A DNA stretch of 64,000 nt from an uncultured Geobacter sp. (GCA_903915655.1 CAIWTU010000039.1:24113-88112), one strand, 5' to 3'. Counted from the stretch's first letter, positions 40,504 to 49,831 are shown. The notes: generated by a model not told the origin, from the sequence alone. Numbers and translations are program-made.

Positions 40504-40612
40504 CCGCCGGAATTCCTCCAAAGGTGCGAAAATTTAATAGAAATTCCATTGGACAAACGCAAACCAGGGCTGCTAAACTGCCGTAGGCGAGAGAATAAAT
40601 TCCTGTCCGATT
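40504..40612 (+). promoter_or_regulatory. Conserved leader-like element, copy A
   Basis: Shares CCGCCGGAATTCCTCC…ATAGAAAT..CATTGGACAAACGCAAACCAGGG..G.TA..CTGCCGTAG.CG…TCC with copies at 47989-48108 and 49468-49553. Confidence 0.5.
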
Positions 40613-40974
40613 TATCGATTAAGGAAAATTCAGAATCCATTAACTTTTTCTTGAATGGGTTCCATACAGCCAAAGAGAGTGGCATATTAGTGGGTCAGGA
40701 GGCGATCCTGGCCTTTAAGCTTCCAAAGACAGCAAAAGAAATTGATGTAGAGATCAAAAAAGCGCTGGAGAGTGGTGGCCTTTATCCGGCCAGAGCAAAG
40801 GTTTCTCAGTCTGTCCAGTGAGTGGTTTCCGGGGGGCGCTTGCTCATTGGGGGAGCGCTCACCCCTTCAGAGGGCGCCCCCCGCCAACCTAGAATTGTCT
40901 TTCTCTAAAGAGACAGGCGAAAGAAACCGGAGCATTTGCTAAATGAAGACAACTTAAAACAGGAGGCAGGAACA

Positions 40975-41427
40975 ATGAAAAAGATCGGATTAGTAATAGG
41001 CGTATTGGCTATTTTAGCGCTGTTGCCTGGCGGCGCTAAGGCTGAGTGCGTGCGGGATTGCCTGCTCACTTACAGCACCTGTCTAACTCTCTGCAGTCAA
41101 ACAGGGAAAGGGGATGATGCTGCGTGCACCGCCCACTGTCAAAAAGGACGTGACGGTTGCATCGAAAGATGTGAAGCCAATAATCGGCGGAGTGAAAATA
41201 GTACAGATCACAAAAAGGTTCAATCATCTGCGGCAAATGATTTTATGGCTAAGAATATAGTGCTTGCTTCGGGTCGTGATGACAATGATCAGCCCTGTGT
41301 TGTAGGTGGAAAATATGTTGGAAACTGCTCACTAAATAAGCCCTATTATAATGCATTCAATGGAAAATGTTTTGCAACTTTGAGTGGTTGCGGCGGAAGC
41401 TCAAGCTGTGTCCGTTGCGGTAATTGA
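40975..41427 (+). CDS. Secreted cysteine-rich protein, unknown function
   Basis: AGGAGG then ATG at 40975. Signal peptide MKKIGLVIGVLAILALLPGGAKA. The mature part has about 17 Cys in CxxxC/CxxC-like spacing. Confidence 0.65.
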   Translation: MKKIGLVIGVLAILALLPGGAKAECVRDCLLTYSTCLTLCSQTGKGDDAACTAHCQKGRDGCIERCEANNRRSENSTDHKKVQSSAANDFMAKNIVLASGRDDNDQPCVVGGKYVGNCSLNKPYYNAFNGKCFATLSGCGGSSSCVRCGN

Positions 41428-41590
41428 TTGAAAAGCAGCTCTTTTCCATACGCCCGTTGAGTATCTTTGCTCCGTAGCCCATGCGAAGGCAAACTACCTT
41501 GGTCTCCTCGGTGAGCATGAGCATGGATGGGAGGTCGTGACCGGGCCATATGGTCGCGGCTTGAGGGTAAGAAGTCGCTGCAGGAGATTA

Positions 41591-42106
41591 ATGATGACGC
41601 AAGTGGAGAGGAAATCCATGACTGAAGTGGCATATGTGACATCAGACCAAACATCACACGGCATACCGGGTAGTGCATTTGCAGGGTTGATGGAGGCGGT
41701 GCTTGAAAAGAATCTGCCCTTCCGGTTCAGCGCGTCCGGCAGCAGCATGACTCCTTTCATTCAAGACGGCGACACCATTACCGTCGCGCCTTTGCCCTTG
41801 CAGCTCAGTCCGGGCGATGTAGTGGCATTTGTCAATCTGCACAGTAATCAGCTGATGATTCATCGCATAATTCATGCTTCACCGGCAGGATATCTTATCA
41901 AAGGTGATAATAACAGAGTGCCCGATGGGCTGATGCCTGCATCGAGTATTATCGGCCATGTTTTCCGAGTAGTGCGACGGGGCCGGCAGGTGCGGCTTGG
42001 TCTCGGTATCGAACGCTTCTTAATTGCATGGCTCTCAAATCGCTGCTGGTTGACGCAGTTACTATCAATGGGGCTGCGCATCACAAAACAGGTCTATCGT
42101 CCATGA
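41591..42106 (+). CDS. S24/S26 (signal-peptidase-I-like) serine peptidase
   Basis: SGSSMTPFIQDGD (nucleophile Ser) and IKGDNN (general-base Lys / GDN box). C-terminal hydrophobic segment. Confidence 0.7.
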   Translation: MMTQVERKSMTEVAYVTSDQTSHGIPGSAFAGLMEAVLEKNLPFRFSASGSSMTPFIQDGDTITVAPLPLQLSPGDVVAFVNLHSNQLMIHRIIHASPAGYLIKGDNNRVPDGLMPASSIIGHVFRVVRRGRQVRLGLGIERFLIAWLSNRCWLTQLLSMGLRITKQVYRP

Positions 42107-42293
42107 CACAGCTTGTCGAGGTCATCGCCATTTTGGGTTTTCCGCTCCGGGCGCCCGGTACGACCTTCGACCTGCGCCGGGGGACGCTTCGCGAGGGGTG
42201 GAAATCTTTTGTACCGAAGGTGCGTGACATCCGTTCCCGGAGGAGGGAGTATCTGGAAAATTGCCGGGCATGCCCGGAATTACCCGACAAGCG

Positions 42294-44153
42294 ATGAAAG
42301 ATCATCCTTCGATTTTTGTACGGCTGCGTCAGCAGGCCCCCTATATTCCGAAGACCATGCGGCTTATCTGGCGTGCATCGGGGGTATGGATGGTCGCATG
42401 GCTCATGCTTCTGCTGCTGCAGGGCGCACTTCCGGTAGCCCTTGTCTATATGACCCGGCATGTCGTTGACACCATTTCTGGCATTGCCGTAAAGAGCGGC
42501 ATGGGCGGCAGCATCTTGTTGCCACTTGTCACTCTGGGTCTTTTGCTGCTCGCCGGACAGATTTTTCTGAGCACAGGCCAATGGGTGCGCACCATCCAGA
42601 GCAATCGCATCCAGGATTATATGTCCGGCCTGATCCACGTTCAGGTTATGGCGGTGGACCTGAGTTTTTATGATTCCTCGGTCTATTACGACCGGCTGCA
42701 CCGGGCAAGGATGGATGCCATGACCCGCCCGCTTGCCCTTCTTGAGGGGATGGGCAGCCTTTGTCAGAACGCTATTACCCTTGCCGGTATGGCCGCCCTG
42801 CTTTTTTCGTACTCCTTCTGGATACCGATCCTGCTTTTTACTGGCACAGCTCCAGCTCTCTGGGCCACCGTCCGTTATGCCGGACGGTTGAACGATTGGC
42901 TGCGCAGTAATACCGTAGAAGAGCGTCGCTGCGAATATTATGATTGGCTGCTTACCATGCGGGATGCGGCCCAGGAGCTTCGGTTCTTTGATCTTGGCGC
43001 TCACTACCGCTTTGCGTATCAGCGACTGCGGGCTCGTCTGAGAAATGAGAAGGAGCGGCTGGAAAAAGGAAGGTTTCTGAGCGAACTCGTGGCCGGTGTT
43101 TTGGCCCTCCTGACAACAGCCTTGGCCATGCTCTGGATGATCTTTCGGACCATAGCCGGCAAGGCAGGCGTTGGCGACATTGTGCTCTTTTACCAGGCTT
43201 TCGGGCAGGGGCAGCGGCTTATGGCAAACCTGCTGCGTAATACCGGCGAGATATATCAGAACGTGCTCTTTCTTGAAAACCTTTTCGAACTGCTTGAAAC
43301 GAAGCCAAAGCTCTGCGATCCGGAAAATCCGTTGCCGGTGCCAAACTTGAATGAGGATCTCCGGTTCGAAAACATAGAGTTCCGATATCCCGGGAGTGAG
43401 CGGACCATTCTGAAAGAGTTCAATCTCACCATGAAGGCGGGGGAGATCGCTGCCATCGTCGGTGAAAACGGCGAAGGGAAATCAACCCTAATTAAGTTGC
43501 TCTGCCGGTTCTACGATCCTGACAAAGGCCGTATCACGGTCGACGGTAGTGACATCCGGGAGTTGAGCCAAGTAGAGTGGCGCGGGCAGATCACCGTACT
43601 TTTCCAGGAGCCTGTGCGCTACCACGTATCCGCCTCTGAAAATATCGCCCACGGCAATATTGCCGGCAATCCTACGCAAGAGAGTATCGAAAAGGCTGCT
43701 GAAGCATCCGGCGCCTTTGATCTCATCGAGCGCCTGCCCGAAGGGTTTCAGACGGTTCTCGGCAAATGGTTCGGCGGCGCTGAGCTGAGCGCGGGGGAGT
43801 GGCAAAGGGTTGCTCTGGCCAGGGCCTTTCTGCGACGTGCCAGGCTGATCATCCTTGATGAGCCGACAAGCATGCTTGACGTCTGGTCTGAAGCGAGGTG
43901 GTTTTCACGGTTCCGGACACTTGCCGCCGGAAACACCGTGCTCATCATCAGCCATCGTCTCACGACGATCATGCAGGCAGATGTGATTCACGTTATGCAG
44001 GGGGGCCGAATCACCGAATCGGGGCGTCACGAAGAGCTGCTGAACAAGCATGGGCGTTACAGTGAGGCGTGGGAAAGCCAAAAGTCGCGACCCTGCTTTG
44101 ACACGCGAGGGAGCTGTACGGGTCATGGCGATTGTACTGCGGCGCCGGTCTGA
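42294..44153 (+). CDS. ABC exporter, fused permease and ATPase (no C39 peptidase domain)
   Basis: Six-TM N-terminal half. Walker A GENGEGKST, signature LSAGEWQR, Walker B LIILDEPTS. Confidence 0.87.
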   Translation: MKDHPSIFVRLRQQAPYIPKTMRLIWRASGVWMVAWLMLLLLQGALPVALVYMTRHVVDTISGIAVKSGMGGSILLPLVTLGLLLLAGQIFLSTGQWVRTIQSNRIQDYMSGLIHVQVMAVDLSFYDSSVYYDRLHRARMDAMTRPLALLEGMGSLCQNAITLAGMAALLFSYSFWIPILLFTGTAPALWATVRYAGRLNDWLRSNTVEERRCEYYDWLLTMRDAAQELRFFDLGAHYRFAYQRLRARLRNEKERLEKGRFLSELVAGVLALLTTALAMLWMIFRTIAGKAGVGDIVLFYQAFGQGQRLMANLLRNTGEIYQNVLFLENLFELLETKPKLCDPENPLPVPNLNEDLRFENIEFRYPGSERTILKEFNLTMKAGEIAAIVGENGEGKSTLIKLLCRFYDPDKGRITVDGSDIRELSQVEWRGQITVLFQEPVRYHVSASENIAHGNIAGNPTQESIEKAAEASGAFDLIERLPEGFQTVLGKWFGGAELSAGEWQRVALARAFLRRARLIILDEPTSMLDVWSEARWFSRFRTLAAGNTVLIISHRLTTIMQADVIHVMQGGRITESGRHEELLNKHGRYSEAWESQKSRPCFDTRGSCTGHGDCTAAPV

Positions 44154-44351
44154 AAGACGCAGTTAAATGGACCGAGCAGTTCACCCTATCTGGAGATGCA
44201 GGATAGCAACAGTGGTGCCGAAAAAATAGTGCGGGACGTGCCGGATAGTGGCAATTCTCCGGTCGAAATATTCCCTTGACATACAATTGAGGTTTATGAT
44301 CTGCTTTCAAAGTAACTTCTTATCTAAAATATCAAAAAACGGAGGTGCATA

Positions 44352-44534
44352 ATGAAAAAGGGCAAAAAGAGTTGGGAAACTCCCCAGTTGATCGCCATTA
44401 CACGCCAGCAGCCGAGGGCAAATGTGCTATCTGCATGCAAATCGGGCTATTCCGCTGGGTCGAATGAGTCCAATGGCAACTGCTATTCGGTTGGTACTAC
44501 ATGTGAAACCTGCAGTTCCCGGCCAAGTTCGTGA
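44352..44534 (+). CDS. Candidate ribosomal peptide precursor (60 aa; basic W-x-x-P-x-L leader, Cys/Ser/Thr/Gly-rich core)
   Basis: GGAGG sits 6 nt upstream of the ATG. MKKGKKSWETPQLIAITRQQPRANVLSACK leader-like half, then SGYSAGSNESNGNCYSVGTTCETCSSRPSS. Confidence 0.55.
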   Translation: MKKGKKSWETPQLIAITRQQPRANVLSACKSGYSAGSNESNGNCYSVGTTCETCSSRPSS

Positions 44535-44624
44535 CGCCAAAAGTCTATGGGTAGAGGGATAGATGTAGCCTGTCGGCAAAATGTCCAATCTTTGCATCCC
44601 ATGCTGTAATCAGAGGAGAATAAG

Positions 44625-44975
44625 ATGAAAAAAGAGACCATCGAAGCTGGAGTAACCACCACTTCTGTAGAAACCCCAGCGGAAGCATCAGCTCAAGAAA
44701 CCCTGCACGGTCGCTCCGTCTTTGCCATCGAGATGACCGCCTCCGGACTCTCCGTTCGCACCGTCTTCCTGAGCGACCAGAACCAACTCATCGAAATGCC
44801 GGCGCTATTCCCGGATGTGCATTATGCTCTGTCCCAGATTGACGAGCTGCGCCGCATGGTCATGGAGCGTTTTGCCGAGGCGGCGCAGATCGGCGCACAG
44901 GTTATCGCAGCGCAGGCTGCTGAGCAGAACCTGAAAACAGCAGGAAAGCGGCGATTTTCAGAAGCGCCAGCTTGA
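44625..44975 (+). CDS. Hypothetical protein
   Basis: Good RBS (GAGGAG). 116 aa, no recognisable motif. Confidence 0.45.
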   Translation: MKKETIEAGVTTTSVETPAEASAQETLHGRSVFAIEMTASGLSVRTVFLSDQNQLIEMPALFPDVHYALSQIDELRRMVMERFAEAAQIGAQVIAAQAAEQNLKTAGKRRFSEAPA

Positions 44976-45290
44976 TGCCGTAGATGGGCGCCTCAGCAAT
45001 AAGATTGATGCCATGTCCGCCGATCTGAAGGCTCACCGGGCTGACACCGAGGCTCATCATGGGGTGTATTTGGTGAAGGAAGGTTGAGGAAATTGGTACG
45101 GGCGGCGGGAGTTAGAATCAAATCATACAATTGTCCGTTTAGCATCACTTTGCGCCAGAGAGAGTCTTTGACATTTTCGTTGTTGTGATATAGAACATAT
45201 GGAAGCATCTGAAAGAGCCAAACCTCGAGTAATCGCGGGACGGAAAGCCACGGGTCCCCAAGGGACGGCCGGGTTGCCGGATGAAACAGT

Positions 45291-45677
45291 TTGAAGACCG
45301 GAGACCAGGGCCCGCGGCGAGACGTAGCGGGCCTCTTTTTTTTCAGCGGGGCCGAATCGGGCGCTGCTAAATTTGTTTCCGGCCGATTCACCGAGGCAAA
45401 ATTACTGATTATATCGCAACCGGTGTCAGCATCGTTTATCTACCCAATTCCTGAAAGCACTTTCAGCCATAGCAACCCAACGGCGCAAGTTGCCCTGGAA
45501 GCACGGATGGCTTACGGTTCGCCACTTCCGGCATGGATGTCGTTTGATCCTGTCCGCAAGGTTATAATGGGGACACCACCAGAAGGTGCTACGGGTGGAT
45601 TTGAGATCAGAATCACAGCCAAAGACCAGTTTGGCGGTGAGGCGCAGACGTTCCTTAAGATAACTGTCGGGATGTAA
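45291..45677 (+). CDS. Possible remnant encoding a single dystroglycan-type cadherin-like/putative-Ig domain
   Basis: The C-terminal 80 aa (…GSPLPAWMSFDPVRKVIMGTPPEGATGGFEIRITAKDQFGGEAQTFLKITV) match the LPxWLxFD…GTP…G.Y.I.V.A.D pattern. The N-terminal part looks non-coding and there is no RBS. Confidence 0.35.
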   Translation: MKTGDQGPRRDVAGLFFFSGAESGAAKFVSGRFTEAKLLIISQPVSASFIYPIPESTFSHSNPTAQVALEARMAYGSPLPAWMSFDPVRKVIMGTPPEGATGGFEIRITAKDQFGGEAQTFLKITVGM

Positions 45678-45806
45678 CTTTGACGGCCTTTTGGTTATTT
45701 GATGGGGTAATGATGAGGGAAACTGGCAGATGATGAGGCACTTGGCGACATGGTGGTGCGGATCAAAAAGATTTCCGGCATCGGTTAACGCAACCTTATC
45801 GCAACG

Positions 45807-47741
45807 TTGAAAATGCAAAGCGAGTATATGAATAGTATAGAAGAGTTAAATCAAATACTGGACAACATTCGGGAACATATTGCAACTGTCCCTGGCGATG
45901 TTGATGCCCTGGCTGACCTGGCAGCGGTGCTGGCGCAACTGGGGCAAACAGAAGAAGCATTGACCATGTTGTTATCGGCGCTTCAACAGTGCCCCGATCA
46001 TCTCGGACTACAACACAACCAGGCTGAACTATACCGGAATACGGGAATGATAGATCAAGCCGAAAGCCTGTTTACAAAATTGGTCACTAAATACCCTCAT
46101 TTTGTTCCCGCCTATCAATCGCTCATCCTTATTCTGGTCGGCCGCCTGGAAACAGGCCAACTGACAACAGGGCAATTTGCAGAAGTTTCGAGGCAAATTG
46201 CCATATACAGCAGCAACAAAGGTAACGCCCTGCTGGACATCGGGCAGATTGAATCCGCAGAAGCAGCTTACGTTGATGCCCTGAAATATTGGCCGGATTA
46301 CCCTGCCGCGCACTCCAATTTATCGAATGTATCGCGGATGATGGGCCAGGTCAGTAAAGCGGAAATGTCCGCGCGCACAGCGTTGGCATTACGCCCGGAC
46401 TTTGCTGGGGCCTGGAATAACCTTGGCACCGCGCTTTCAGAGCAAGGTCGATGTGCAGAAGCGATGGGTTGCTATCAACGTGCCCTGACTCTCGATCCAG
46501 GTCAGGATGGCGCACGACACAATGCGGGCAGCGGCAGCCTGTTTCTTCAACTGTATCGGGATGATCTTACGGTTGATCAGGTAGTAAAAGTGCATCGAGA
46601 ATGGGGGAAATCTTATCCATTTGCTGCCCTTCCTGAGGCTGTTGCCCTAACCGGCAAGCTCCGTGTCGGTTTTATATCCGGCGATTTTCGGGAACATTCG
46701 GTCATGTATTTTGTTGAAGCCCTTTTGGAAAAGCTCGATCGCACAAAGTTTGAAATTGTCTGTTATGCCAATCAAACCGGGGAAGACGCGGTTACCAGGC
46801 GTATAAAAGCGTTGCCTCTCAAATTGCGACAAGTCGCCGCGTTGTCTGATACTGATCTATGCGATCAGATCAGAGAGGATCAATTGCATATTCTGATCGA
46901 TTTGAGTGGGCATACAAAGGGTCACCGAGTATACGCGCTTGCCAACAAACCGGTTCGCGTGATGGCGCATTGGCTGGGCTATCCTTTTACCAGTGGCCTG
47001 CCGGCTTTTGATTATCGTATCAGCGACAGGTGGGCTGACCCTGAAGCATCCGCAGCAGAACAGCACACCGAACAACTGGCTTATTTAACGGGAAGTCAGT
47101 TCAATTATCGTCCCAAAGCTGATGCGCCTGAAGTGAACGCGCTACCGGCCGCAAGCAATGGCTTTATCACTTTTGGCTCGCTGAACAACATACAGAAGCT
47201 GAATCGAAGCGTGGTTTCGGTCTGGAGCCAAATTCTGCTGAACATCCCGGATAGTCGTCTGATTCTGCAGAACAAATTATTGGCTGATGCAGGTGTTGCC
47301 GGAAGAATCAGAGGTATGTTTGAAGCGTTTGGCGTGGATGCTGCTCGCCTGGATTGTAGCCCCGCCTCTCTAAACCATCTTGCAAGGTACCATGAGATCG
47401 ACATCGCGCTGGACACCTTTCCCTACAATGGCGCGACAACAACCTGTGAGGCGCTCTGGATGGGCGTTCCGGTGCTAGCGCTTGCGGGCGATGGTTCCGT
47501 TGGGCGTATGGGCGCGAGTATTTTATCGGCCATCGGCATGGAATCATGGCTGGCAAATTCGGTGGGTGACTACATCCGTCTGGCTCAGCGCCACAGCGCC
47601 CTGCCTGATAATCTGGCTCTGCTTCGCAAAGGTTTGAGACACCGAATGGCAGGAAGCCGTTTGTGTGACGAAGAGGAATTTGCAGTTGATTTTGGCCGAT
47701 GCCTTAGAGAGATGGTTGGGTTCAGACGGGTGGATCGGTAA
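45807..47741 (+). CDS. TPR-repeat protein fused to a GT41 (SPINDLY/O-GlcNAc-transferase-like) glycosyltransferase domain
   Basis: N-terminal TPRs (…AYVDALKYWPDYPAAHSNL…, AWNNLGTAL…YQRALTLDP). C-terminal LRVGFISGDFREHSV…, DLSGHT…, DTFPYNGATTTCEALWMGVPV are typical of the family. Confidence 0.8.
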   Translation: MKMQSEYMNSIEELNQILDNIREHIATVPGDVDALADLAAVLAQLGQTEEALTMLLSALQQCPDHLGLQHNQAELYRNTGMIDQAESLFTKLVTKYPHFVPAYQSLILILVGRLETGQLTTGQFAEVSRQIAIYSSNKGNALLDIGQIESAEAAYVDALKYWPDYPAAHSNLSNVSRMMGQVSKAEMSARTALALRPDFAGAWNNLGTALSEQGRCAEAMGCYQRALTLDPGQDGARHNAGSGSLFLQLYRDDLTVDQVVKVHREWGKSYPFAALPEAVALTGKLRVGFISGDFREHSVMYFVEALLEKLDRTKFEIVCYANQTGEDAVTRRIKALPLKLRQVAALSDTDLCDQIREDQLHILIDLSGHTKGHRVYALANKPVRVMAHWLGYPFTSGLPAFDYRISDRWADPEASAAEQHTEQLAYLTGSQFNYRPKADAPEVNALPAASNGFITFGSLNNIQKLNRSVVSVWSQILLNIPDSRLILQNKLLADAGVAGRIRGMFEAFGVDAARLDCSPASLNHLARYHEIDIALDTFPYNGATTTCEALWMGVPVLALAGDGSVGRMGASILSAIGMESWLANSVGDYIRLAQRHSALPDNLALLRKGLRHRMAGSRLCDEEEFAVDFGRCLREMVGFRRVDR

Positions 47742-47988
47742 GGATACGCTACCCAGTGATGTCGCGGAGAACGCCCTATCCGCGACCGCCTTTGCCGTTT
47801 CCGGCAGTCTGCTGAAAGGCTCCTCTCAACGCCAAAAACCTCCCCTATGCAAGAAAAATGATTTTTTTCAACAGTCGCTGTATTCAGCCATCTCCTCCTG
47901 ATCTGGTTTTAGGCTAACGGTATTCTTGGGTATCTCATTTTTGAATTGTTCCACTTTCGATGGGTGACCCCGCTTCTTCAATTTCGAT

Positions 47989-48108
47989 CCCGCCGGAATT
48001 CCTCCCAACATGTTGAAACTTATAGAAATATCATTGTACAAAAGCAACTTAGAGGTGGTAAACTGCTGTAGCCGGAAAAGTAAATCCCTATTCGGAACCT
48101 ATCCGAAA
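47989..48108 (+). promoter_or_regulatory. Conserved leader-like element, copy B (immediately 5' of the metzincin gene)
   Basis: Aligns with copies A and C. It is followed by the hairpin ttcgga-accta-tccgaa, an AGGAGG RBS and the ATG at 48140. Confidence 0.5.
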
Positions 48109-48139
48109 TAATCGTTCAACCTCAGGAGGAATTACCACG

Positions 48140-49426
48140 ATGAGAGAGAGAATAATTGCCGTCCTCTTTGTATTTTGCCTCATCTTCAATTACGGATGCA
48201 CGGGAGGCGGAAGCGTTGATGCCGGGCCTTCGCTCTTTACGGAGAACACCCAGCAGGGACACCCCACCCCCAGCAGCGCTCTGGGGTATGTCAGATATAG
48301 GTTCGTTGATGTCGCTGACAATTACCTGGTCGATGCAAGAGTGACCCGCCTCACACTCAATCTATTCTCTGATCTCTCCTACTCGGCGGTGCGTGATTCG
48401 TTTGAGCAACTAGAGGACGGTTCGTACGTCTGGACTGGCCACATCGTGGGCGTCCAGAACAGCGAGGTCGAGTTCGTGAATGACGGTGGCTCGGTGGTGG
48501 GCATTGTGCGCGTCGGCTCGCGCTCGTACGAAGTGGGATATGATGATGGGTGGCAGATAGCGGCAGAGCTCGATCCGAACCTGCCAGAGCCGACAACCGA
48601 TGCGATAGAGATAGATCCGACCAAAGAGGCCGCGCAGTCCACGAAGGGATCTGCAGCGGCCGTGCCCCCCACGAAGGCGTCTGCGGATGATGGATCGGTG
48701 ATCGATGTCATGGTGGTCTACACTGCGGCAGCTCGTAAAGCGGCCGCTGGGATAGGTGATCTGCCGGACAAAGGTATCAGGGCAAAGATCGATCTGGCGG
48801 TCAAGGAGACCAACCAGGGTTTTGTGAACAGCGGAGTGAACACCAAGGTGCGTCTGGTTCACGCGGCGGAAGTCAGTTTTGACGAGAGCGAGATGACCCC
48901 GAGTGAAGCATTGTCGGAGATGAAGGATGGGAAAATCGGCTCGGTTCATGCGTGGCGCGATACCTATAAGGCAGATCTTGTCGTGATGCTTGCCCTCTAT
49001 CCGCGCGAAGACGTCTCAGGTGAATCGCTCGGCGTCGGGTATGTGATGAGTGGTCGGTATCTGGATAAGCAGACCCTCGTATATCCGTTTGAGCACTTGG
49101 GGTACAGCATCGTAGGCGTGAACTATGCGACAGGCTACTACACCTTTGCCCATGAGATGGGCCATAATATGGGTCTCTGTCATTACTATGACGTTTCGAC
49201 GATCACCGCGGCGGAGTCAGGCGGTTATGCGTGGAAGACCACGTTGTTCAGGTCGATCATGGGGCCGCCGGCGGGAGTGCCCAGAATCAACTACTGGTCG
49301 AATCCCAGCGTCAAATATAGCGGGTTGGCGACCGGAGGAACGGGTCTGGACGGAAGCTTTGTTTACGGAGGGAATGAGGCCACTGTCCTGAACTGGACAC
49401 GCGCCATCGTCGCGAAGTTCCGATAG
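48140..49426 (+). CDS. Lipoprotein zinc metalloprotease of the metzincin clan (reprolysin/M12B-like)
   Basis: Lipobox-like signal (…LIFNYGC). HEMGHNMGLCH is the HExxHxxGxxH motif. Confidence 0.8.
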   Translation: MRERIIAVLFVFCLIFNYGCTGGGSVDAGPSLFTENTQQGHPTPSSALGYVRYRFVDVADNYLVDARVTRLTLNLFSDLSYSAVRDSFEQLEDGSYVWTGHIVGVQNSEVEFVNDGGSVVGIVRVGSRSYEVGYDDGWQIAAELDPNLPEPTTDAIEIDPTKEAAQSTKGSAAAVPPTKASADDGSVIDVMVVYTAAARKAAAGIGDLPDKGIRAKIDLAVKETNQGFVNSGVNTKVRLVHAAEVSFDESEMTPSEALSEMKDGKIGSVHAWRDTYKADLVVMLALYPREDVSGESLGVGYVMSGRYLDKQTLVYPFEHLGYSIVGVNYATGYYTFAHEMGHNMGLCHYYDVSTITAAESGGYAWKTTLFRSIMGPPAGVPRINYWSNPSVKYSGLATGGTGLDGSFVYGGNEATVLNWTRAIVAKFR

Positions 49427-49467
49427 CTTCGTTTCAGCGTTCCTATTCGGTGGTGAAGACTAAGAAG

Positions 49468-49553
49468 TTGCTAATATTTTATAGAAGTTTCATTGGACAA
49501 ACGCAAACCAGGGGTGGTAGCCTGCCGTAGCCGAAAAAGCAGATTTCTATCCG
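49468..49553 (+). promoter_or_regulatory. Conserved leader-like element, copy C (lacks the GGAATTCC head; no downstream gene)
   Basis: TTGCTAATATTTTATAGAAGTTTCATTGGACAAACGCAAACCAGGGGTGGTAGCCTGCCGTAGCCGAAAAAG… aligns to copies A and B. It is followed by a terminator and then the AT-rich island. Confidence 0.5.
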
Positions 49554-49560
49554 TAAAAAA

Positions 49561-49590
49561 ACCCTCCAGACAAGTGTTAGGAGGGTTTTC
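49561..49590 (+). terminator. Rho-independent terminator-like hairpin at the island junction
   Basis: accctcc-N12-ggagggt followed by TTTT, preceded by an A-run. Confidence 0.6.
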
Positions 49591-49831
49591 TGGTTTGCTA
49601 CTTCTTCAGTTTAAACTTTACAACTTTAAATAACTATGCGCACTCATAAGTGTTACATCTACTATGTAAAGATATCGCCATACAGTAAATTAATTAGTTA
49701 GTTATATACATTATAAAAGAACAGTTGTAAATATTTATTTTTTGCATAAATTGTAAAGTAAATTCATAACATACCGAAATTAATAACATCACTATTCACA
49801 GCCTAAAAAATATTCAATAAGATACAAATTT

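Follow-up and report, generated by a model that had tools for sequence, protein, structure and literature searches.

The DNA considered here is a window of 64,000 nucleotides (C39:24113-88112) from an uncultured Geobacter sp., whose assembly comprises 3.36 Mb in 171 contigs. The window harbors three copies (A, B and C) of an element of ~100 bp, all on the plus strand. Copy A precedes, by a gap of ~350-355 nt, an operon led by a Cys-rich signal-peptide protein. Copy B lies in the 5′ untranslated region (UTR) of a metzincin lipoprotein gene, ending 35 nt 5′ of the ATG of this reprolysin-type lipoprotein, and copy C is followed directly by the hairpin and T-run of an intrinsic terminator (49558-49589). 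The placement of each copy had been given in outline in a preliminary description made from the window alone, with coordinates that prove right to within a few bases. A covariance model, built from six genomic copies and using sequence only, places the element at 40520-40621 (A), 48006-48105 (B) and 49464-49563 (C), with scores of 81-94 bits (E ~1e-24 to 1e-28). Pairwise identity among the three copies is 75-80% over 78-101 nt, and their three-way alignment has a mean column identity of 72% with long invariant runs. The head CCGCCGGAATTCCTCC, described as common to A and B, is exact in both (40504-40519 and 47990-48005). The parts of the three copies are as follows.

40504-40519, plus strand: head of copy A, CCGCCGGAATTCCTCC, common to B and, with 1 mismatch, to copy D; at about -80 from the predicted start
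40520-40549, plus strand: A/T-rich upstream block of copy A, AAAGGTGCGAAAATTTAATAGAAATTCCAT, subfamily-specific and in the position of an UP element
40550-40555, plus strand: -35 hexamer of copy A, TGGACA
40571-40579, plus strand: extended -10 of copy A, TGcTAAACT; predicted start ~40585-40586
40592-40610, plus strand: leader block of copy A, AGAATAAATTCCTGTCCGA, at ~+6 to +25 of the predicted transcript
47990-48005, plus strand: head of copy B, CCGCCGGAATTCCTCC
48007-48034, plus strand: A/T-rich upstream block of copy B
48035-48040, plus strand: -35 hexamer of copy B, TGTACA, the weakest in the family
48056-48064, plus strand: extended -10 of copy B, TGgTAAACT; predicted start ~48070-48071
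48077-48109, plus strand: leader block of copy B, AAAGTAAATCCCTATTCGG, then a second tandem tail, CCTATCCGAAAT
48140-49426, plus strand: gene downstream of copy B, encoding a 428-aa lipoprotein with reprolysin-type (M12B) metallopeptidase domains
49465-49493, plus strand: A/T-rich upstream block of copy C
49494-49499, plus strand: -35 hexamer of copy C, TGGACA
49515-49523, plus strand: extended -10 of copy C, TGgTAGCCT; predicted start ~49529-49530
49536-49554, plus strand: leader block of copy C, AAAGCAGATTTCTATCCGT
49558-49589, both strands: two-way intrinsic terminator (A-run, hairpin, T-run), with the longer T-run on the minus strand

A search of the rest of the genome, as the preliminary description had proposed, yields three further good copies and one decayed copy, together with a fragment of the 5′ part.

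C21:3166-3265, plus strand: copy D, good copy
C158:55952-56051, minus strand: copy E, good copy
C158:67287-67381, minus strand: copy F, good copy
C158:67909-67986, plus strand: copy G, decayed, with two 2-nt deletions
C18:35932-35957, plus strand: 5′-part fragment, 26 nt of the subfamily upstream block (AAGGTGCAAAAATTTCACAGAAATTT), 24/26 identical to D

The invariant positions of the six-copy alignment are TGGACA, an 18-nt spacer and an extended -10 element, TGnTAnnnT. The stretch first read as a GGTA..CT block is TG-n-T-A-n-n-n-T, in which TG, T, A and the final T never vary; n is G or C, and the hexamers are TAAACT (three times), TAGCCT, TAACCT and TAAAGT. Invariant TG, T, A and final T around variable inner positions constitute the conservation pattern of an extended -10. 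TGGACA, which matches TTGACA in 5 of 6 positions, sits 18 nt upstream of this -10. An automated table of the family members lists copies A-E as TGGACA (TGTACA in B), 18 nt, TGn and TAnnnT; copy F carries the same signals in the alignment, though the table did not place it. A consensus promoter scan calls TGGACA-18-TAAACT with TG in copy A. Decayed copy G reads TTGCAA-16-TATACT by eye and TTGCAA/18/TACTCT in the table, and promoter geometry, not overall sequence, appears to be what it has kept.

The same layout recurs with stronger hexamers elsewhere in the genome. In copies A-E, 12 nt separate the -10 from the conserved 3′ block, AAAGCAAATTCCTATCCG. Searched alone as GAAAAAGCAAATTCCTATCCG with up to 4 mismatches of 21, it is found at eight further sites, with ~0.003 sites expected by chance at up to 2 mismatches. 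All eight lie 12-13 nt after TTGAC[AGT]-17/18-(TGn)TATTTT/TATTAT/TATAGT, in register with the copies described above (for example gcgTTGACActaccctgccgcgggTGtATTTTT...CAAAAAGCAAATTCCTATCCC and ccgTTGACGctgactcctgccgggTGtTATTAT...CAAAAAGCAAACTCCTATC). Three more members are included in an alignment of 17 sequences, bringing the other sites in this genome to at least 11. This alignment displays one architecture, with TGGACA of the subfamily under TTGACA and TGGTAAACT under TGGTATTTT; in the table of members the order is -35, a spacer of 17-18 nt, TGn or GTG, TAnnnT, 12-13 nt and the leader. Since this architecture is shared with textbook promoters, about two-thirds of the element would be promoter DNA and the last ~25 nt the start of the transcript, with predicted starts near 40586, 48071 and 49530.

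On these alignments, the element is a species-specific subfamily (6-7 copies) of a wider family that combines a promoter with a conserved leader. The wider family numbers ~17-21 copies in this genome, the 17-sequence model finding 21 sites. In at least 12 of 39 relatives, which span several families of the order, the model has matches reaching into the leader, 1-5 of them per genome. The relatives collected have TTGAC in 15 of 17 cases and TGnTA in 15 of 17, and follow the pattern AAATTGCaTTGAC..GCTCATTTnCGG-TGgTAnnnT-N10-13-AAAGCAAATTCCT.TCC. The subfamily model, in turn, has no match in 40 relatives, four of them of the same genus, and the subfamily upstream block is absent from all 40. Pattern scans of genomes and metagenomes returned, apart from chance matches, only contigs of the same species: L022 (Loclat_bin-10882, 99.8% identical to C158) and L023 (98%). 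The wider cassette is older than the subfamily.

The genes behind the copies have little in common. Copy B precedes the M12B/reprolysin lipoprotein, copy D a lipoprotein similar to periplasmic binding proteins (its gene is cut off by the end of the contig), copy E a calcineurin-like phosphoesterase lipoprotein and copy F a Gly-rich repeat protein of 925 aa that has a signal-like segment (C158:64473-67247, minus strand). Subfamily genes with a recognizable start thus encode lipoproteins or signal-peptide proteins. Pfam names two of six scanned proteins, a reprolysin-type peptidase and a Metallophos phosphoesterase, which are unrelated; the scan gave no domain for the other four, except a zinc ribbon in the protein of copy G. 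The downstream proteins are not homologous, and similarity between copies ends at ...CTATCCG. No close orthologue of the genes of E and B was found in the genus. From their N-termini, we take the genes of the wider family to be a mix, among them those for a D-aminoacyl-tRNA deacylase, a ribulose-phosphate epimerase, an acetoacetate decarboxylase, a Nif11-type peptide, transporters and lipoproteins; the cassette faces the start in every wider-family case in which one is identified. All gene-linked copies of the subfamily likewise face their gene. The earlier statement that exported-protein genes always follow the element is true of A, B, D, E and F and fails for C, 3′ of which the plus strand carries a terminator hairpin and then AT-rich DNA with no gene. 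Copy C may be a promoter that has lost its gene.

With a probability of roughly 75%, the copies are ~100-bp sigma-70 promoter cassettes, each consisting of a promoter and the first ~25 transcribed bases, that are reused before unrelated exported-protein genes. Among the options of the preliminary description, that of a promoter is borne out by the invariant positions and by homology to textbook promoters; the operator for a dedicated regulator that it coupled with this promoter can only be inferred. Extended -10 promoters with UP elements are established from Escherichia coli and Bacillus subtilis. Such sigma-70 promoters resemble the element in having TG one base 5′ of TAnnnT, a weak or near-consensus -35 at 17-18 nt and A/T-rich DNA upstream of the -35; to our knowledge, ordinary promoters of unrelated genes share neither spacer nor the region upstream of the -35 nor the first 25 transcribed bases. 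In the right orientation, a start codon follows the cassette at 9-126 nt; the exceptions are copy A (~350 nt), copy C (terminator) and a small number of members of the wider family for which no nearby start was found. Several points weigh against this reading. The start site is only predicted, and the subfamily hexamers are weak (-35 4-5/6, -10 3-4/6 vs. consensus), so that a simple consensus scan passes copy A alone and the case for a promoter relies on the TG extension and on the stronger relatives to which the element is homologous. Conservation of ~100 nt at 75-89% identity exceeds what a promoter needs, and RNA polymerase contacts alone leave the near-invariant TTTCATTGGACAAACGCA and the leader block unexplained. 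Moreover, copy C drives nothing recognizable.

The length, the conservation, the constant sense orientation and the location in or near 5′ UTRs would also fit a structured cis-regulatory RNA (a riboswitch, an attenuator or a GEMM-I-like aptamer) transcribed from a promoter further upstream. Its ACGCAAACC resembles the GCAAACC of GEMM-I, a likeness pointed out at the outset, and by eye an A/U-rich outer helix (ATAGAAATTT/AAATTnCTAT) is possible. Such RNAs are in use in the locus, as a true GEMM-I-type aptamer lies close by: the window's one riboswitch, at 45208-45282 on the plus strand, is a c-di-GMP-I-GGC aptamer (59.4 bits, with the gathering score at 59; E 1.7e-11). A search of Rfam 15, however, gave no match on A, B or C at the gathering score or at E<=10. 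The likeness to the GEMM-I/c-di-GMP-I clan (Rfam CL00126; RF01051, RF03167) consists of the GCAAACC string and a site 5′ of exported-protein genes, whereas the element has no model match, no two-hairpin fold and no pair of GNRA tetraloop and receptor, and the true member at 45208-45282 looks different. Folding of the six copies is no better than that of dinucleotide shuffles (z = -0.14 to +1.37), and each copy has its own minimum-energy fold. For six copies, the RNAalifold consensus has -0.9 kcal/mol and a single, implausible 7-bp helix; a survey of all column-pair stacks of at least 4 bp that 5 or more of the 6 copies tolerate yields nothing but G-U-rich stacks of 4-5 bp with no compensatory changes. 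The covariation check proposed earlier likewise shows none, in a test that covers seven related copies of one species and has limited power. Twelve wider-family sites gave no Rfam match at E<=1. In addition, promoter signals account for the invariant positions, and because the predicted start falls inside the element, about two-thirds of it would not be transcribed from its own promoter, which speaks against the element as an RNA leader. A structured RNA is therefore very improbable. A main function in the shorter leader RNA, with the pyrimidine-rich UUCCUAUCC serving as an anti-Shine-Dalgarno sequence or as the site of an RNA-binding factor and copy C as a ~60-nt decoy, is decidedly unlikely as well. 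Leaders of F, C4 and C7 pair with the ribosome-binding site well above shuffles (summed pair probabilities of 5.1, 6.5 and 6.2 vs. 0.3-1.8), as does C158y weakly; the CCTATC tail is tandemly duplicated in B, F, C13 and C90; and copy C is composed of promoter, leader and terminator. But 9 of 13 leaders, B, D and E among them, show no such pairing, the leader keeps its distance to the -10 but not that to the start codon, the genome as a whole shows no enrichment of CCTATCC, and the better T-run after copy C is on the other strand.

The remaining option of the preliminary description, a small repeat, stands insofar as the element is dispersed before non-homologous genes; terminal inverted repeats and target-site duplications are lacking, and the 5′ edge is ragged. 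A small non-autonomous mobile element, akin to miniature inverted-repeat transposable elements (MITEs) or repetitive extragenic palindromic (REP) sequences, could have spread selfishly with only incidental promoter activity. Its multiple copies are confined to one species and precede accessory genes with no close orthologues in the genus, its 3′ edge at ...CTATCCG is sharp, and repeats that carry promoters are known, among them Correia elements and ERIC (PMC3575422). The Correia elements of Neisseria and ERIC are, like the element, dispersed intergenic repeats that supply promoters to their neighbors, but they have terminal inverted repeats and target duplications and insert in either orientation, whereas the element has no such ends and always faces its gene. 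Neither inverted repeats nor target-site duplications are common to the copies, similarity begins anywhere from -47 to +20 at the 5′ edge, decayed copy G retains promoter geometry, and the core architecture is found order-wide at low copy number. Selfish spread is, on this evidence, quite unlikely. The label of putative mobile promoter denotes sequences that lie 5′ of genes that are not paralogous and that agree at 80% or more of their positions across 50 nt or more (Matus-Garcia, Nijveen and van Passel, 2012; PMC3575422). The copies reach 88.6% over 70 nt (C-E), 84.9% over 119 nt (A-D), 82.2% over 73 nt (D-F) and 80.3% over 71 nt (D-E), and the coding sequences downstream are not paralogous; the element falls within the definition as published there. 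Both involve highly similar non-coding sequence before non-homologous genes in one genome, with no associated insertion sequence and no Rfam family; the cassette differs in its readable signals, its conserved transcribed leader and the order-wide presence of a wider version at low copy number.

Promoter geometry, homology, gene orientation and absence of RNA structure can be read from the sequence itself, and a sigma-70 promoter cassette so composed would work as follows. From 5′ to 3′, an A/T-rich block in the position of an UP element is followed by the -35, the 18-nt spacer, the extended -10, ~7 nt of G+C-rich DNA, the predicted start and AAAGCAAATTCCTATCCG. RNA polymerase with the housekeeping sigma factor would start ~7 nt after the -10, and AAAGCAAATTCCTATCCG would form ~+6 to +25 of the transcript. 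The weak -35, the near-invariant TTTCATTGGACAAACGCA and the upstream GAAA(A)TTTCAT direct repeats suggest a reliance on the TG extension and perhaps on an activator. The subfamily upstream block would bind this activator (that of copy A possibly being such a site), and activator dependence would put the exported-protein genes under common control. The fragment on C18 suggests that the upstream block is a module of its own; it lies ~70 nt 5′ of a type IV pilin-like gene (…GFTLIELMIVIG…), with no other part of the cassette there.

The position of the leader block is more constrained. Its distance from the -10 is 10-13 nt in 15 of 16 tabulated members (12 in A-E) and similar in relatives, whereas the gap to the start codon can be as short as 9 nt or exceed 120 nt. 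This combination ties the leader to initiation or the 5′ end of the RNA rather than to the ribosome-binding site, and the retention of the spacing in other families of the order also argues for a role there. The block would thus act as an operator, in promoter escape or as a 5′-end stability element or determinant. Most likely, the cassette gives its downstream genes a common transcription signal and a common 5′ end. A more elaborate proposal, in which the leader AAAGCAAATTCCTATCC is the site of a global factor (on DNA or the RNA 5′ end), the upstream block is the activator site of a regulon of secreted proteins and lipoproteins, and copy C yields a ~60-nt decoy RNA, is tentative and rather unlikely in full.

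Genome papers on Geobacter note numerous intergenic families in multiple copies, as well as putative regulatory sequences that precede operons (PMC2700814). A literature search for the leader and motif sequence found no description of this motif. Promoter reuse is of a known kind and the element is not a new riboswitch, so that a false riboswitch lead is removed; what it offers is a clear example from nature of a single promoter cassette serving several unrelated genes for exported proteins, here in an uncultured Geobacter-like bacterium. Were the cassette active, its ~80-bp core (the -35, the leader and all between) would provide a ready-made, portable signal for expression in this bacterial group.

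Several other readings do not hold. An anti-Shine-Dalgarno role of the leader has support in only 3-4 of 13 leaders. A small open reading frame (ORF) within the element is contradicted by frames that differ between copies and by the lack of a ribosome-binding site. For a sigma-54 promoter, GG and GC are 8 nt apart instead of the required 12, and for a sigma-28 promoter, TAAA and GCCGAAAA are 8 nt apart instead of 15; consensus boxes of extracytoplasmic function (ECF) promoters do not occur at the required spacing. The ops site of RfaH is matched by GCCGTAG at 7 of 12 positions and is missing from F, and JUMPstart has no match. Readings as a PurR half-site or a CodY-like site have the wrong spacing or lack the second half-site. 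A supposed diverged copy upstream of a paralogue on C34 aligns ~2.4 standard deviations above shuffles, which is not significant.

A number of minor features accompany individual copies. Between copy A and the Cys-rich gene, there is a possible 43-codon ORF with a GTG start (40690-40821, plus strand, VGQEAILAFKLPKTAKEIDVEIKKALESGG…), and a strong G+C hairpin with no clear T-run (GGGGGGCGC…GCGCCCCCC, 40831-40882, plus strand). These two features make the first product of the copy A promoter uncertain. The c-di-GMP-I-GGC aptamer lies between copies A and B, just 5′ of an ORF at 45291-45677 and a TPR/GT41 gene at 45807-47741. Copy B has a predicted 5′ UTR of ~69 nt, up to the ATG at 48140. Part of its head, AATTCCTCC (47997-48005), is the exact complement of GGAGGAATT (48125-48133), the ribosome-binding region of the metallopeptidase gene, 119 nt away; chance alone would yield ~0.1 such pairs in 240 nt, and the pairing would be relevant only if transcription also begins 5′ of the head. 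The leader tail CCTATYCG is duplicated in tandem in copy B (48086-48109, CCCTATTCGGAACCTATCCGAAAT), in F and in the wider-family members C13 and C90; in copy F, an entire second AAAGCAAGTCCCTATCCGA follows the first. Copy C and its terminator are bracketed by AAGAAGTTGCTAA and TTTGCTACTTCTT, complementary at 11 of 13 positions, and GCAAACCAG pairs with CTGGTTTGC. The 184-nt region 3′ of the metallopeptidase gene (49427-49610, plus strand) folds with z = -3.5, much of it owing to the terminator hairpin. The protein downstream of copy F, with ~20 Gly-rich repeats (…GILAQSIGGGGG.GG…), matches nothing in Pfam and is unclassified, though similar to an autotransporter passenger. A distinct dispersed repeat of ~109 nt (…GTCATTCCGGCAGGCTTCTAATCGGAATCCAG…; L023:3508-3616, corresponding to C158), just 5′ of copy F, looks like a REP/MITE-type element and occurs in at least 10 copies of 89-94% identity, on C51, C83, C90, C116, C127 and C157.

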